A stretch of 19,700 nucleotides of DNA from a virus. Positions 2,694-17,884 of the stretch are shown piece by piece. The translations under genes were made by a program, and so were the position numbers. Each line of letters begins with the position of its first letter. Within the stretch, counting starts at the first letter, position 1. The notes under the pieces are model-generated. The model did not search any database and was not told where the DNA came from. It saw only the letters and a program-made list of their open reading frames with translations. The DNA lies in UHGV virus genome UHGV-0129547. One strand, 5' to 3'.

Positions 2694-3056
2694 TCATTCA
2701 TTCCCCATTTCGGTGATGGTCAGTTCCAGCCTCCCACCTTTGGTAACAGGCATCTTCACAACGCGGTAATCAACGACCTGAGCATCATCCAGCCAGAAAC
2801 CTGCTTTAGTGAGTGCGTCAAAAGCGGCTTTTTGCAGATTATCCAGGTCACGGCGACGGCGATCCGGCATGTGGCACTCAATGCGGATTTTCACAGGAAT
2901 AGCCAGGCCGATATCCAGCATTGCGTTTTTAATGATTCGGGCGACGTTATCGCGGTATGCCTGCCCCTCTGCGCTGATGTGCGTGCGCCCGCGATTATGG
3001 CGGTAATAGCGATTATTGCTCGGAGGCCAGGGTAATGTGATGCTGTAGGTATTCAC
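2694..3056 (-). CDS. rusA: Holliday junction resolvase RusA
   Basis: 120-aa [29 protein letters not shown]...[11 protein letters not shown], essentially the E. coli DLP12 RusA sequence as I recall it; GTG start overlapping the ybcO stop (GTGA). Confidence 0.95.
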
Positions 3057-9568: not shown

Positions 9569-9595
9569 TTGACCATCAATACGCAAGCGTATAAA
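9569..9595 (+). promoter_or_regulatory. Putative PRM-like promoter for the repressor gene (near-leaderless mRNA)
   Basis: TTGACC (9569-9574), 15-nt spacer, TATAAA (9590-9595), ending about 10 nt upstream of the repressor ATG at 9605. The spacer contains the inverted repeat ATACGC-AA-GCGTAT (9580-9593). Confidence 0.35.
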
Positions 9596-9604
9596 TTAAA
9601 ACTT

Positions 9605-10297
9605 ATGAAAAAAGAAACTCTTGCTGATCGCTTAAACCTAGCGATGGAACAATCTGGAATGTCTCAAGGCGCTCTTGCAAAGGCGTCTGGCGTAGCTCAA
9701 CCCACAATCTGGAGACTGACAAGCGGCAACGCGCGCGGCTCAACAAAAATTGTTGAAATAGCTAATGCATTGGGTGTTCGAACAGAATGGCTCTCATCAG
9801 GCATAGGCCCGATGAGAAATGACGGTCAACAATCAGGGAAGCCTGCTGTCAGCCATTCCAAATACTTCAAAATTGACGTTCTTGATATAGAAGTCAGTGC
9901 CGGGCCGGGTGTAATCAACCGTGAGTTTGTAGAAGTTCTACGCTCGGTTGAGTACTCGTTTGACGATGCTCGTCACATGTTCGATGGCAGGAAGGCGGAA
10001 AATATCCGCATCATTAACGTGCGTGGTGACAGCATGTCAGGAACGATCGAACCAGGTGATCTGCTGTTCGTTGATATCACGGTTAAATCTTTCGACGGTG
10101 ATGGTATCTATGCGTTTCTGTACGACGACACAGCCCATGTAAAGCGTCTGCAAATGATGAAGGATAAGCTGCTGGTTATCTCTGATAACAAGAGCTACTC
10201 ACCGTGGGACCCGATCGAGAAAGACGAGATGAACCGGGTGTTCATCTTCGGTAAGGTTATTGGGAGCATGCCGCAGACGTATAGGAAGCATGGGTAG
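9605..10297 (+). CDS. CI-type phage repressor (N-terminal HTH, C-terminal S24/LexA-like peptidase domain)
   Basis: From the ATG at 9605: MKKETLADRLNLAMEQSGMSQGALAKASGVAQPTIWRL... (HTH) followed by ...NVRGDSMSGTIEPGDLLFVD...AHVKRLQ... (S24 Ser/Lys autocleavage module). The ORF-track start at 9569 is a TTG inside the putative -35. Confidence 0.85.
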   Translation: MKKETLADRLNLAMEQSGMSQGALAKASGVAQPTIWRLTSGNARGSTKIVEIANALGVRTEWLSSGIGPMRNDGQQSGKPAVSHSKYFKIDVLDIEVSAGPGVINREFVEVLRSVEYSFDDARHMFDGRKAENIRIINVRGDSMSGTIEPGDLLFVDITVKSFDGDGIYAFLYDDTAHVKRLQMMKDKLLVISDNKSYSPWDPIEKDEMNRVFIFGKVIGSMPQTYRKHG

Positions 10298-10343: not shown

Positions 10344-11192
10344 ATGTCTTCGATTTGGGGAAAAAAGTTGATGACGAAAGAACAAGAGTCAAACACTGAT
10401 GAAGTGAAACCAGAGCAAGGAAGTTTGTTTGAATTAGAATTTCATGAATATACACCTTCAAGCTTAGGCACAGCACACCTTTCTGGTTTCGCTATTGCCA
10501 CTGATGAAATGGAATATGCAGTTAAAAGCATGCGCTCCACCCCACCTTTTCCTGTACAAAACCCAACTCAAGTACCGGCAGCGGAATGGTTTTGCACAAA
10601 TTTAGCTGAAAAATGCGGCATCGCTACACCTGTGTGCAAAATTCTCAAGTGTATTGCTAATGGGGAGTATGTTTTTGGCTCTCGCATAGAGTTTTCAGCC
10701 TGGAAATCTGGTCTCAATAGTCCTCAATGGATAAATTTGCTCTCAAATGCTTCTGAATCCTTAAAGAAGCAACTCTGGGCAATTTATGCATTTGATCAGT
10801 TTGTATATAACATTGACAGACACCTCAACAACTACTTATACATGGAAAACACCCGAGGCAATGTTATAGTTAAAACATTCGATTTTAGTCTAAGCTCTTT
10901 TGTTATAGGCTGGCCACGAAATACCCCTCATATACTACCAACAGACTCCAGTACAACAACAAACTGGACGATTGCTAAACAATTCATTGGCGACACTGAT
11001 GATCTGAGAAAGTGCGCATTATCTGTCCTTGACAAAATTGAAAAAATTGGAGTTGAGGCTATATCTGATATACTTAACTCTATGCCTGAAGCATGGATGC
11101 CACCAATGCATAAGGAGTATTTTTTGAAGTGGTGGGACAGCGAGGAGCGAATCGATAGGCTAAATGCCATAAGACTGGAGATAACATCTTGA
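10344..11192 (+). CDS. Kinase-fold protein with HipA/PI3K-like catalytic loop (282 aa); candidate effector of a lysogen-expressed two-gene system
   Basis: ATG at 10344 with AGAGG 6 nt upstream, 46 nt after the repressor stop. Residues 158-163 DRHLNN (10815-10832) match the DxHxxN / DRHxxN catalytic loop of HipA-like and PI3/4-kinase-like folds; FDFS at residues 179-182 resembles the Mg-binding DFG-like/YDLVS motif that follows it in HipA. AT-rich coding sequence. Much shorter than canonical HipA. Confidence 0.6.
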   Translation: MSSIWGKKLMTKEQESNTDEVKPEQGSLFELEFHEYTPSSLGTAHLSGFAIATDEMEYAVKSMRSTPPFPVQNPTQVPAAEWFCTNLAEKCGIATPVCKILKCIANGEYVFGSRIEFSAWKSGLNSPQWINLLSNASESLKKQLWAIYAFDQFVYNIDRHLNNYLYMENTRGNVIVKTFDFSLSSFVIGWPRNTPHILPTDSSTTTNWTIAKQFIGDTDDLRKCALSVLDKIEKIGVEAISDILNSMPEAWMPPMHKEYFLKWWDSEERIDRLNAIRLEITS

Positions 11193-11995
11193 AAACTTTC
11201 AAATACAGCTTAATCAGAGTTACACCGAACTTAGAGAAAGGTGAAACGATTAACGTTGGTTTGATCGTTTACCATGACTCTGACATAGACGTACGTATGC
11301 TCAATTCAGTTTCAAAACTTAAAGCGATTGACAAAGATCTTACCTTAGATTACTTAGAGGATCTTTCGACCTCGCTTTTTGATTTGTCACAAAAAATCAA
11401 CAATGCTGAACTTCTTCCTTGTCTTTTTAAGGGAGCATTATCGTTATCGTCATTTGGCATGTTCACTCTTCAAGCCAACGAAGATTACGAAGCTAAAGTT
11501 ACTGATCTAATGAATCGGTTAGTAAACCCACAAAAACAGCCACATAAACACTTGAAAAAAAAGGTTTTTTCTGAATTAAAATCCACCTTTATACAACATG
11601 GAATTTTCAGTAAGTATTTTGAAGATCTTTCCCAACATAAAATCGTAGCTAATTATCCAATTAGTAATGAAGAAGGGTTAGTTGCAGATTTTTTGTTAAA
11701 AAATGGCAAATACCATCTTACAGAAACATTAGATTTTCGTTCTGAAAATATAAAAAAACAAATGGGTGAAGCTGCGATAAGTGTTTTAACAATTACTAAA
11801 GCCTACGAATTATACAATTCAAATATTGATTCATTTGTAATTTTTGCCGCTGAAACGACAGCACAAGAAAAGTCAGCAAAACAGCAGCTAAATCTACTGG
11901 AAAAACACGCTGATAATCTTATCAACGCATATAGCAAAGAAGACATGCGTTCATATTACGAAAAGATGCTGAATGCTGCCTCTATGTTACAGTAG
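11189..11995 (+). CDS. DUF3037-like protein (268 aa), partner of the kinase-fold gene
   Basis: TTG start at 11189 overlapping the upstream TGA (T-TGA coupling), GGAG 10 nt upstream. N-terminus ...YSLIRVTPNLEKGETINVGLIVY... matches my recollection of the DUF3037 N-terminal signature (R-x-V-P-x-x-x-x-G-E-x-I-N-V-G). AT-rich. Followed by a terminator. Confidence 0.6.
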   Translation: MKTFKYSLIRVTPNLEKGETINVGLIVYHDSDIDVRMLNSVSKLKAIDKDLTLDYLEDLSTSLFDLSQKINNAELLPCLFKGALSLSSFGMFTLQANEDYEAKVTDLMNRLVNPQKQPHKHLKKKVFSELKSTFIQHGIFSKYFEDLSQHKIVANYPISNEEGLVADFLLKNGKYHLTETLDFRSENIKKQMGEAAISVLTITKAYELYNSNIDSFVIFAAETTAQEKSAKQQLNLLEKHADNLINAYSKEDMRSYYEKMLNAASMLQ

Positions 11996-14885: not shown

Positions 14886-14961
14886 CAACCACTGAATGCA
14901 TTTTTCTGGCAGCGGGCTTCATATTCTGTGTGCTTATGCTTGCCGACATGGGACTTGTTCA

Positions 14962-15177
14962 ATGACACCTCAGCAGGAAAACGCCCTTCGCAGCATTGCC
15001 CGTCAGGCTAATTCTGAAATCAAAAAAGCCAGACAGCAGTTTCCGGATAAAAACGTCGATGACATTTGCCGTAGCGTACTGAAGAAGCACCGCGAAACGG
15101 TAACGCTGATGGGATTCACACCGACTCACTTAAGTCTGGCAATCGGTATGTTAAACGGCGTCTTTAAGGAACGGTGA
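14962..15177 (+). CDS. Small hypothetical protein (lambda orf61-like)
   Basis: From the ATG at 14962: MTPQQENALRSIARQANSEIKKARQQFPDKNVDDICRSVLKKHRETVTLMGFTPTHLSLAIGMLNGVFKER. The ORF-track N-terminal extension is unlikely. Confidence 0.55.
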   Translation: MTPQQENALRSIARQANSEIKKARQQFPDKNVDDICRSVLKKHRETVTLMGFTPTHLSLAIGMLNGVFKER

Positions 15178-15275
15178 ACATGAAAAGCAAAATCATCAGG
15201 GAGCTACAGGCTCCTTTTTTATTATTCGCATTCACCCTCAAGCGTATTAACCAACAATTCAGGGATTAATGAAAG

Positions 15276-15497
15276 ATGGCAGATATCATTGATTCAGCAT
15301 CAGAAATTGAAGAATTACAGCGCAATACAGCAATAAAAATGCGTCGCCTGAACTACCAGACTGTATCCGCAACTCATTGTTGTGAGTGTGGCGATCCGAT
15401 AGATGAACGAAGACGCCTGGCAGTTCAGGGTTGTCGGACTTGTGCAAGTTGCCAGGAGGATCTGGAGCTTATCAGTAAACAGAGAGGTTCGAAGTGA
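15276..15497 (+). CDS. TraR/DksA-family C4 zinc-finger protein (lambda Orf73-like)
   Basis: 73 aa with C-x2-C...C-x2-C (CCECGDPIDERRRLAVQGCRTCASCQ), the TraR/DksA-type zinc finger that phage TraR homologues use to bind RNA polymerase. Confidence 0.8.
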   Translation: MADIIDSASEIEELQRNTAIKMRRLNYQTVSATHCCECGDPIDERRRLAVQGCRTCASCQEDLELISKQRGSK

Positions 15498-16093
15498 GCG
15501 AAATTAATTATCAGGCACTGCGTGAAAAGGCAGAGAAAGCAACTAAAGGAAGCTACATCGTAGGGCATACATCTGTTAACCAACACGGCAATTTAACAGG
15601 AGTTTTTGTTTGTCAAAAATGGAAAGGAGAACCCGGTGGCGTGATTGCGGAATGTCATGTTAACTGCCTGATTGAAACAGATGCTCAGGCTTATGCAAAC
15701 GCTGAATTCATAGCAGAGGCTAACCCGGCTACCGTGCTGGCACTGCTGGATGAACAGGAAAGAAACCAGCAATACATCAAACGCCGCGACCAGGAGAACG
15801 AGGATATTGCGCTAACGGTTGGGAAGCTGCGCGTTGAGCTTGAGGAGACAAAATCAAAACTCAACGAGCAGCGCGAGTATTACGAGGGAGTTATCTCTGA
15901 TGGGTGCAAGCGTATTGCTGAACTGGAAGCGCGGGAAGTTCAATTACCGACTCGCTACGACCTTCGATATGGACACCCCATAAATGCAGATGAGCGACAA
16001 GTCATGATACCTAAAGAAAATGGCAGTTGGCTTTACCTGATTGACCTAGAACACGCATTACGCGTCGCTGACATTCGCATCAAAGGAGAGTGA
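15494..16093 (+). CDS. Ead/Ea22-like hypothetical protein
   Basis: 199-aa ORF with a GTG start overlapping the upstream stop (GTGA) and GAGG 7 nt upstream; central coiled-coil-like segment; position and composition consistent with the ea22-type non-essential region. Family call is tentative. Confidence 0.55.
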   Translation: MSEINYQALREKAEKATKGSYIVGHTSVNQHGNLTGVFVCQKWKGEPGGVIAECHVNCLIETDAQAYANAEFIAEANPATVLALLDEQERNQQYIKRRDQENEDIALTVGKLRVELEETKSKLNEQREYYEGVISDGCKRIAELEAREVQLPTRYDLRYGHPINADERQVMIPKENGSWLYLIDLEHALRVADIRIKGE

Positions 16094-16094
16094 T

Positions 16095-16610
16095 ATGGCG
16101 TTAACACACCACGAACTCTGTCAGATTGCGTACAAGTTCCTTAAGCGCAACGGGTTCAAGGTTTGCTTTCATGACCGCTTTGTTGCTGTAACCAGTACCG
16201 GAGAACAGCCAGATGCTATGGGATTCAGAAATTCAGCATCATGCCTGATAGAGGCGAAGTGTTCTCGTGCTGACTTGTTGGCAGATAGAAAAAAGCGTTT
16301 CCGTAAAAATCCCTCACTTGGCATGGGCGACTGGCGATTCTTTATTAGTGAGCCGGAAATTATTTCAGTTGAGGATTTACCTCCCGGCTGGGGATTACTT
16401 CACGTTGTTAACGGAAAAGTACGGAAAGTACATGGATGGCCCAGGGGTAATTGCTGTTGGGGTAATCCTGACGATAAGCCATTTACCGGGAATAAGCAGG
16501 TTGAATGCGATTACATGTTATCTGCATTAAGGCGCATGGAGTTGAGAGGGCACCTTAATGAAATATATGACGGTGTGATTGTTAATAAGAAAGAAGGAAA
16601 CGCGGCATGA
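16095..16610 (+). CDS. Hypothetical protein with PD-(D/E)XK nuclease-like motif (171 aa)
   Basis: ATG at 16095 with GGAGAG SD. Segment ...GEQPDAMGFRNSASCLIEAKCSRADL... gives PD-x12-EAK, the classic PD-(D/E)XK signature; Cys/Trp-rich C-terminus (GWPRGNCCWGNPDD). Confidence 0.6.
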   Translation: MALTHHELCQIAYKFLKRNGFKVCFHDRFVAVTSTGEQPDAMGFRNSASCLIEAKCSRADLLADRKKRFRKNPSLGMGDWRFFISEPEIISVEDLPPGWGLLHVVNGKVRKVHGWPRGNCCWGNPDDKPFTGNKQVECDYMLSALRRMELRGHLNEIYDGVIVNKKEGNAA

Positions 16611-17551
16611 TCACTATTACCAAAGGGCGACTGCTGACAATCAAGCAGTGGCGCGAAACATACGGACCGGGTAGCAACGTTGTACTGCCAGCAGAAGAAG
16701 CGGAAGAACTGGCACGGATTGCACTGGCATCGCTGGAAGCAGATCCAGTTAAACGAGTTAACTCAGATCAGATGCGCCGAGTCTGCTTAGAAGCTAATCG
16801 CCATTTAGATAAATATGACGCGATGGCGAAAGAGGTAAATAAGTTGCTTGGACGCATCGCCCCGCCAGCGCCAGTATTTAACGGCGAATACGGTGACGCA
16901 TATCAGGGCGCTCGTGAAGACCTGTCCATCTGGAAACGGCGAGCGCTTGAAGCTGATGAGCACGTTCGGCGACTGGAGCAAATCAATGACCACATGGTGA
17001 AAGAGGCGCAGGGAGAATCACGCATGGGCGAGCCTGTAATACGTGAGCCAGCACCGGTAGTGCCTGAAGAAGCAACTCCGGAAAACGTAGAAATGCTCTC
17101 TGGCTATGTTTCAACGTACAAATTAACCGATAGCGAGCGCGATATTGCTGCCGAAATATGGAACGCCTGCCGCGCCGCCATGCTTCAGTCCGGAAACTTT
17201 CGGGAAAACAAGAATTCGTCAACCAATAATTTTCGGGAAATCGCGGAAACGTCAACCAACTATCCGGCAATTCCTAGTGAGGTGTTGTCCGCAATCCTGA
17301 AGGTTGCCAGGATTCGTGCCGATTTCGATGATTTTGACGGTGACAGGCGAGGTATCGGTGATTGTCTGGATGAGGCTGAGCAAGAGCTTATCGTTACCAT
17401 TAACAAATATGCCAGTCAGTTGGCAGCAGAACCTATAGCGCCTAATGACGTTCGAGAGCAGACAGCCATTCCACAAGTTCCGGTAACTCCGGATGGTTGG
17501 ATAAGCTGTAGTGAGCGAATGCCGGACGACAGGCAGGAGGTGAATCAATGA
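16607..17551 (+). CDS. Hypothetical prophage protein (314 aa), C-terminus DUF551-like
   Basis: ATGA overlap with the upstream gene; C-terminal ...PDGWISCSERMPDD... resembles the DUF551 prophage-protein signature from memory; internal short peptide repeat NFRE..STN encoded by a DNA direct repeat near 17200-17260. Confidence 0.55.
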   Translation: MITITKGRLLTIKQWRETYGPGSNVVLPAEEAEELARIALASLEADPVKRVNSDQMRRVCLEANRHLDKYDAMAKEVNKLLGRIAPPAPVFNGEYGDAYQGAREDLSIWKRRALEADEHVRRLEQINDHMVKEAQGESRMGEPVIREPAPVVPEEATPENVEMLSGYVSTYKLTDSERDIAAEIWNACRAAMLQSGNFRENKNSSTNNFREIAETSTNYPAIPSEVLSAILKVARIRADFDDFDGDRRGIGDCLDEAEQELIVTINKYASQLAAEPIAPNDVREQTAIPQVPVTPDGWISCSERMPDDRQEVNQ

Positions 17552-17631
17552 GCTGGCCTGATGCAATCGTAACTCTGGGGGTGGTATTCGCAGCAGCGTT
17601 TGTTGTGTTCTCGATTTGTCGATGGGGATAA
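17548..17631 (+). CDS. Small hydrophobic peptide (27 aa), putative membrane protein
   Basis: ATG at 17548 preceded by GGAGG with an 8-nt spacer and overlapping the upstream TGA; translation MSWPDAIVTLGVVFAAAFVVFSICRWG is a single TM-like helix. Below the ORF-track cutoff. Confidence 0.35.
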   Translation: MSWPDAIVTLGVVFAAAFVVFSICRWG

Positions 17632-17635
17632 CCAC

Positions 17636-17884
17636 ATGTTCGCTTTGATTCAACGCGGTCAGATATACACGGACAGAGCTGGATACCCCGTGGTGATTAC
17701 TCGCATCACTGAGCACTCAGTGTTCTTTCGACGGATGGACGGACGATCCGGGCGGGTACGCATTGGTGAGTTAAACTGCCTGTTCGAACATATTGACCAC
17801 CAGGAGTACCGCAAAATTCTCGCGGACACTGAGCAGGAAAAGCACCTGAAAAAATTACGAGCCATAAAAGGAAGTAAAGAATGA
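17636..17884 (+). CDS. Hypothetical protein (82 aa)
   Basis: From the ATG at 17636: MFALIQRGQIYTDRAGYPVVITRITEHSVFFRRMDGRSGRVRIGELNCLFEHIDHQEYRKILADTEQEKHLKKLRAIKGSKE; co-oriented with neighbours in the int-proximal region. Confidence 0.55.
   Translation: MFALIQRGQIYTDRAGYPVVITRITEHSVFFRRMDGRSGRVRIGELNCLFEHIDHQEYRKILADTEQEKHLKKLRAIKGSKE

Follow-up and report, generated by a model that had tools for sequence, protein, structure and literature searches.

MmcB of Caulobacter crescentus is a PD-(D/E)XK endonuclease that is needed for resistance to mitomycin C and cisplatin, and among the MmcB-like proteins such a role, with SOS (LexA) control, is known for this one only (PMC9578287). MmcB proper is chromosomally encoded, SOS-regulated, and found mostly in alphaproteobacteria (PMC9578287, PMC3424549). 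The MmcB-like family (DUF1052/PF06319/COG5321), of which 3dnx is a structure, was put in the PD-(D/E)XK superfamily through its likeness to archaeal Holliday-junction resolvases (PMC1189080, PMC3424549). In phages, the exo-xis genes are driven by pL and are among the earliest to be transcribed (PMC10834534). Here we analyzed a gene of this region in a 19,700-nucleotide stretch of the virus genome UHGV-0129547 (the window), the whole of which is a lambdoid prophage. The initial annotation, made from the letters alone, had described its product as a small protein with a PD-(D/E)XK motif belonging to a family that it did not recognize. We can now place this family: it is a sister group of the MmcB-like proteins and a more distant relative of the archaeal Holliday-junction resolvases (Hjc).

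The putative nuclease gene and its operon

The gene occupies positions 16095..16610 of the plus strand and runs without interruption from an ATG start to a TGA stop. It encodes 171 amino acids, and the PD-x12-E-A-K pattern for which it was first singled out can be read directly in its sequence: P39 and D40 (codons 16209-16214) are followed 12 residues on by E53-A54-K55 (Table 1). This 171-codon gene is genuine and is a phage early gene. Between the AGGAG sequence and the nuclease ATG falls the stop codon of the Ea22-like gene located upstream (16091-16093), and the TGA of the nuclease gene shares bases with the start codon of the gene behind it (ATGA at 16607-16610). Because of these 2 arrangements, the gene is translationally coupled within a string of co-directional genes. 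No promoter-like site was seen directly 5' of it. Further upstream, a terminator-like hairpin with a T-run (15198-15216, plus strand) separates a 93-aa ORF (14896-15177) from the TraR/DksA-like gene (15276). Antitermination is presumably required for the Ea22/nuclease segment to be transcribed.

The gene order of the window begins with a block containing Q, RusA, YbcO, and a NinB-like protein, followed by replication genes and the repressor region. The next block encodes Bet (RecT family), Exo (YqaJ), DUF1317, DUF1382, and TraR/DksA, and the last one the Ea22-like protein, the nuclease, and the DUF551-like protein, and then DUF4222, excisionase, and integrase. Both flanks of the nuclease gene had been named correctly at the outset, and the Ea22-like assignment is firm (Table 1). 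The DUF551 assignment of the 314-aa downstream protein stands, but it is marginal (cut-off of 22 bits), and this domain is truncated because the match covers only profile positions 1-16, at the extreme C-terminus (last 16 residues) of the protein. A TTG-started DUF4222 ORF (17600-17884, plus strand) comes after this gene. The cut-off DUF551 domain and the DUF4222 ORF suggest a deletion or recombination scar at 16607-17884. Elsewhere in the window (10344-11995, plus strand), directly 3' of the repressor-side ORF 9569-10297, a HipA-like kinase gene (PF20613, 1e-6; 10344-11192) overlaps a DUF3037 gene (1.6e-9; 11189-11995). The equivalent position in a related prophage of E. coli N25 is taken by genes for a MqsA-like antitoxin and a SecB-like protein, and the HipA-like/DUF3037 pair looks like a swappable accessory or defense-type cassette.

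Table 1. Features of the nuclease gene and of its surroundings, with their positions in the window. Conservation counts refer to an alignment of 126 sequences, made up of the query and of 125 representatives of clusters formed at 50% identity.
Feature	Position	Strand	Evidence or conservation
RusA gene	2694-3056	-	
Ead/Ea22-like gene, upstream neighbor in the same early-left operon	15494..16093	+	PF13935, 1.8e-41
Shine-Dalgarno AGGAG	16084..16088	+	6 nt 5' of the nuclease ATG, read from sequence
Codon D27 (E in most relatives), first conserved acidic residue after strand 1	16173..16175	+	acidic in 124/126
Codons E37-Q-P-D40, 'PD' part of the putative catalytic motif, start of strand 2	16203..16214	+	E37 123/126, P39 118/126, D40 125/126
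Codons E53-A-K55, '(D/E)xK' part, end of strand 3	16251..16259	+	E53 125/126, K55 125/126
Codons S57-R70, helix after strand 3, motif S-R-x-D-F/L-x-x-D-x-x-K-x-F-R	16263..16304	+	D60 126/126; D64, K67, R70 each 125/126
Codons G76-M-G-D-W-R-F82, family-specific motif into strand 4	16320..16340	+	G78, R81 126/126; G76 119/126
Codons E137-E150, C-terminal helix	16503..16544	+	E137 117/126, R146 106/126, R147 108/126; helix 134-150 in models
314-aa protein with truncated DUF551 at its C-terminus, downstream neighbor	16607..17551	+	PF04448, 23.3 bits

Predicted fold, conserved residues, and relatives

To describe the protein further, 2 AlphaFold models were considered, one based on 33 close homologues (pLDDT 77) and a second one based on 67 more diverse homologues (pLDDT 92.4, pTM 0.86). 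Both contain a helix at residues 5-18, strands at 23-25, 41-45, and 48-54, helices at 58-71, a strand at 80-85, a hairpin at 100-113, and the C-terminal helix. They place D40 just before strand 2 and E53 and K55 at the end of strand 3, which is the canonical PD-(D/E)XK arrangement, and the predicted chain contains the alpha-beta-beta-beta-alpha-beta core of this fold. In Foldseek searches with the better model, the sole match below E 1e-3 was 3dnx (E 2.3e-6; TM 0.57/0.65), which is SPO1766 of Ruegeria/Silicibacter pomeroyi. The next-ranked structures were AF1548, the Hjc protein ST1444, the R2 endonuclease, and Bax1, and matches in BFVD included viral proteins labeled 'MmcB-like DNA repair protein'. 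Structure prediction and Foldseek thus bear out the nuclease fold that had been proposed from the motif, and we consider this fold, together with homology to the MmcB-like proteins, very likely.

The residues of the motif are conserved among homologues, as the initial reading had anticipated. D40, E53, and K55 are near-invariant in the 126 sequences (Table 1), and therefore the PD...EAK pattern, as judged from this alignment, lies far beyond chance. D27 is aligned with E46, which is invariant in the phage MmcB-like proteins, and E53-A-K55 with the ECK of 3dnx and the E-x-K of the phage MmcB-like proteins; the S-x-x-D-F-x-x-D of the S57-R70 helix is found in 3dnx and in the alignment of phage MmcB-like proteins as well. 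In the C-terminal helix, E137, R146, and R147 are probable DNA-binding or structural residues. The Cys/Trp-rich C-terminus pointed out initially is present in the window copy (C120, C121, C138, W115, and W122) but is not a conserved feature of the family: C120 is kept in 11/126 sequences, C121 and C138 are rare, and only position 122 is moderately conserved (W in 66/126, other aromatics in some others). A zinc- or metal-binding cysteine cluster in the C-terminus was considered and rejected, as the cysteines are not conserved.

Searches with the window protein itself gave no match in Pfam or NCBIfam, including none to PF06319 at E<=1 (threshold 22 bits) and none to Hjc PF01870 (threshold 21.1 bits), and phmmer against PDB sequences returned only noise. 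Signals emerged at the level of the family. When 51 diverse members were compared with Pfam, sub-threshold matches were obtained to Hjc for 28 of them (best E 1.3e-4) and to MmcB-like for 13 (best E 2.9e-4), and the homologue of Vibrio phage X29 scored 20.4 bits against PF01870, whose gathering threshold is 21.1. With the family profile, the sequence of 3dnx was recovered at E 2.3e-4, the match covering '...D-V-M-G...I-E-C-K-S-S-R-A-D-F-Q-A-D', while the Hjc chains came up weakly, at E of about 0.5. For profile-to-profile comparison we used annotated MmcB-like proteins of the jumbo phages Lu11, PaBG, AD1, JA13, HRDY3, BcepSauron, Motura, and SNUABM_5. With hhalign, the family profile and this MmcB-like profile matched with 95.5% probability (E 1.6e-8, 102 aligned columns), while hhalign of one sequence alone with the family profile gave 31%. 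Plain sequence-to-profile scores between the 2 groups are weak (5-16 bits), so that these are homologous yet clearly distinct families. A bona fide MmcB-like protein, that of Vibrio phage GR7B, reaches 47.3 bits against PF06319 (cut-off 22), and a homologue search seeded with it recovered 2 proteins only.

The MmcB-like family motif, E-x-K-S-x-x-x-D-F-x-x-D-x-K-W ... Y ... Y-F, is matched in part by the window family. Both have the acidic residue after strand 1, the D at strand 2, a C-terminal helix bearing Arg residues, and E-x-K-x-S-x-x-D-F-x-x-D-x-x-K, the first half of the MmcB-like motif. The K-W...Y-L-P-Y...Y-F block of the MmcB-like proteins is absent from the window family, which has K-x-F-R...G-M-G-D-W-R-F and P-x-G-W-G-L-L instead. 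Moreover, the window family is phage-borne and mostly gammaproteobacterial, whereas MmcB proper is chromosomal. With archaeal Hjc (PF01870) and AHJR-like nucleases the window protein shares the minimal PD-(D/E)XK fold and the size, and the phage contexts of its family are recombination modules. In the jumbo phages Lu11, PaBG, AD1, JA13, HRDY3, and SNUABM_5, the MmcB-like gene has a conserved position directly 5' of the dTMP kinase gene and 3' of a Nudix hydrolase gene or, in PaBG, of a SprT/Spartan-like protease gene; this neighborhood is suggestive of a module for DNA damage or crosslink repair.

Distribution and genomic contexts of the family

The window protein matched PHROG 9263 at E 4.5e-120 and PHROG 631 at E 1.5e-93, and it is 96.5% identical to Upf89.0 of phage P7. 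These 3 entries represent the same protein family as the window protein, and their function is given as 'unknown protein function'. An exhaustive profile search recovered 3266 clusters (50% identity) at E<=1e-3, of which 2425 were found at E<=1e-10. Every named member is annotated as 'hypothetical protein', with no Pfam domain in any of them. This is a large, phage-borne family that has no model in Pfam or NCBIfam and is 'unknown' in PHROG, and in the literature searched we found no study of any member, biochemical or other.

At the DNA level, copies of 90-100% identity were located in 928 of the 5426 complete E. coli genomes; one genome can have as many as 6 of them, and 248 of the places are on plasmids. 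Hundreds of Stx-phage records contain the gene as well. By tblastn, the nuclease core (residues about 4-113) was detected in 643 phage records, the carriers including virulent Ackermannviridae (Kuttervirus, Taipeivirus, and Limestone-like Dickeya phages) and many Vibrio phages. Annotation of the copies is uneven: in E. coli TOE17 (NZ_CP069093.1; locus L001, 9001-9516), PGAP splits a copy 100% identical to that of the window into a 'frameshifted' pseudogene and a 110-aa hypothetical protein, and RefSeq mislabels the P7 copy (upf89.0, NC_050152.1; locus L008, 4001-4516) as a 'minor tail protein'.

Every context examined was a phage. The E. coli N25 prophage, located next to mlrA, is 97% identical to the window over most of its length, and its nuclease slot holds an unrelated 87-aa hypothetical gene (WP_000224220.1; locus L002, 14798-15061). 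Carriage by 928/5426 E. coli genomes and this replacement in a nearly identical prophage show that the nuclease gene is accessory and that cassettes are exchanged at this slot. In P7, upf88.3 (Ea22-like), upf89.0, and a DUF551-type gene follow each other in the same order as in the window, and upf89.0 belongs to the hea operon, 3' of a predicted C1 operator. The string of Ead/Ea22-like, nuclease, and DUF551-type genes, seen in P7 (locus L008, 3313-5811) and at 15494-17551 of the window, is a mosaic cassette common to unrelated types of temperate phages. Among 68 related IMG/VR loci, DUF551 proteins were the commonest neighbors (19/68, 17 of them directly adjacent), and an Ea22-like gene was located within 3 genes upstream in 13/68; integrases, NinG, a replication O-like protein, and a metallophosphatase were less frequent.

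The nuclease gene of Vibrio phage X29 lies in a series of exonucleases, DUF551 (adjacent; locus L007, 4660-5465), nuclease, DUF1064, and then RusA-like, Dam, and SSB genes. In a Kushneria prophage the gene follows RdgC and precedes DUF1382, xis, and int; in a Microbulbifer prophage it is located between replication genes and YbcO, within a nin-like region; and in Thioalbus it belongs to a phage-like element with Mor-family, lambda-P-like, and integrase genes. In SeSz-1 it abuts the DNA primase gene, and in Taipeivirus FKP14 the only gene between it and primase encodes a homing endonuclease.

Possible roles of the predicted nuclease

These contexts point to phage DNA metabolism because the family adjoins primase in virulent phages and sits in replication and recombination modules of temperate phages. 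The best explanation overall, to which we would give an even chance, is that the protein is a small single-domain, metal-dependent PD-(D/E)XK nuclease whose structure-directed cutting aids phage replication, recombination, or repair. Catalytic activity, as read from the conserved residues, is likely. The more specific role, structure-dependent cutting of branched or damaged DNA in one of these 3 processes, is drawn by analogy and held tentatively, its chances falling slightly below even; it is nonetheless the likeliest one because the nearest characterized relatives are MmcB and Hjc and because the family keeps company with primase, exonucleases, RdgC, RusA, and SSB.

In the mechanism that we propose, the gene would be transcribed after induction or infection as part of the leftward early operon (pL-type, exo-to-int), and its translation would be coupled with that of the neighboring genes. 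D40 and E53, aided by E37 and/or D27, would hold Mg2+, K55 would be the catalytic lysine that positions the attacking water, and R58, K67, R70, R81, R146, and R147 would bind the DNA backbone. By analogy with MmcB and Hjc, the DNA would most probably be cut at particular structures (branched, stalled-fork, or damaged/crosslinked DNA) and not at particular sequences. Transfer of function from MmcB is a long extrapolation because the sequence-to-profile scores that connect the 2 families are so weak. This phage has its own genes for RusA, YbcO, and a NinB-like protein, so that a junction resolvase would also be partly redundant in it. RusA and Rap/NinG, which occur in the same class of genomes (lambdoid prophages), have a similar kind of job to the one proposed here, on branched DNA in phage recombination or replication, but their folds and families are unrelated to those of the window protein. 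The nuclease is an addition to RusA and not its replacement, since RusA is already encoded in the window and NinG in some related loci. Against a repair role stand the accessory nature of the gene and the fact that its commonest neighbors, Ea22-like and DUF551 genes, are linked to developmental control and not to repair (PMC10834534).

The strongest of the competing explanations, although an unlikely one, is that of an anti-defense or host-takeover nuclease, an early product that destroys a host target (the chromosome, the nucleic acid of a defense system, or a signaling molecule) or counters restriction. It would fit an early-expressed, dispensable, and mosaic gene of the exo-to-int accessory region (PMC10834534). 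The cassette with Ea22-like and DUF551 genes does move between lambdoid phages and P7, and the nuclease gene is also present in virulent phages, in which host-takeover nucleases are common. However, the protein resembles no known anti-restriction protein, consists of a single 171-aa domain without any targeting or sensor domain, and has repair or junction nucleases as its closest relatives. In addition, an unregulated nuclease acting on host DNA from the early operon of a temperate phage would conflict with lysogeny unless it is tightly controlled. A variant that we regard as improbable, at roughly one chance in ten, centers on the Ea22-like/nuclease/DUF551 trio, which would be a mobile module among lambdoid phages, P1/P7-type phage-plasmids, and Vibrio phages, with the nuclease acting on a host target and not in the repair of phage DNA. 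This target, at the same low likelihood, could be the nucleic acid of a defense system or host DNA structures that feed the lysis-lysogeny decision. If true, the trio would represent a new type of early anti-defense or developmental effector.

The PD-(D/E)XK fold is common to restriction enzymes, and the variable prophage region and the up to 6 copies per E. coli genome might suggest a restriction-like exclusion or defense nuclease that shields the lysogen from other phages. This we consider quite improbable, because the window protein matched none of the PADLOC-DB 2.0 defense models (0 families at E<=1) and the gene is not accompanied by a methyltransferase or other partner. No cognate methyltransferase of a type II system is found next to it, its neighborhood consisting of Ea22-like, DUF551-like, DUF4222, TraR/DksA, xis, and int genes, and no methyltransferase cluster appeared among the conserved neighbors of the 68 related loci. 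Furthermore, the gene has no promoter-like site of its own and is coupled into a repressor-controlled early operon, the hea operon of P7 has a predicted C1 operator annotated upstream, and strictly virulent phages carry the gene next to primase. The restriction-modification or defense reading was rejected on the absence of a partner gene, a PADLOC match, and an own promoter, and on the virulent-phage carriers. Together with the DNA-metabolism contexts, the lack of a defense match, partner, or own promoter leaves anti-restriction, host-DNA processing, and exclusion, the 3 activities put forward in the initial annotation, without specific support.

A catalytically inactive protein that binds DNA and tunes the lysis-lysogeny decision together with Ea22 and other exo-xis proteins is slightly less probable still. 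Neighboring exo-xis genes have such roles (PMC10834534), and the nuclease gene is often adjacent to Ea22-like and DUF551 genes, but the catalytic residues are all kept in about 99% of the 126 diverse sequences, which is the pattern of an active enzyme and not of a degenerate binding module. Finally, PD-(D/E)XK homing endonucleases exist and a homing endonuclease gene adjoins the nuclease gene in Taipeivirus FKP14, but a sequence-specific (homing-type or nicking) endonuclease or selfish element is very unlikely, given that the position next to primase is syntenic across Ackermannviridae with and without the homing neighbor, that the protein is too small for a recognition domain, and that the family, in contrast to homing genes, which evolve fast, retains 40-70% identity across a wide range of hosts.

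Phages commonly carry small PD-(D/E)XK nucleases, and the structure-directed nuclease that we favor would be a fairly ordinary phage DNA-metabolism gene that overturns nothing. It is nevertheless carried by about one in six complete E. coli genomes, by many Shiga-toxin phages and P7-type phage-plasmids, and by whole genera of virulent Ackermannviridae. In these carriers the gene is labeled 'hypothetical protein' or mislabeled, and its placement near MmcB-like proteins and Hjc provides a testable annotation. The family would also merit its own curated Pfam or NCBIfam model. For the Stx phages, the result adds a predicted nuclease to the exo-xis region, a poorly understood segment whose genes affect induction of the prophage and, through it, the release of toxin.
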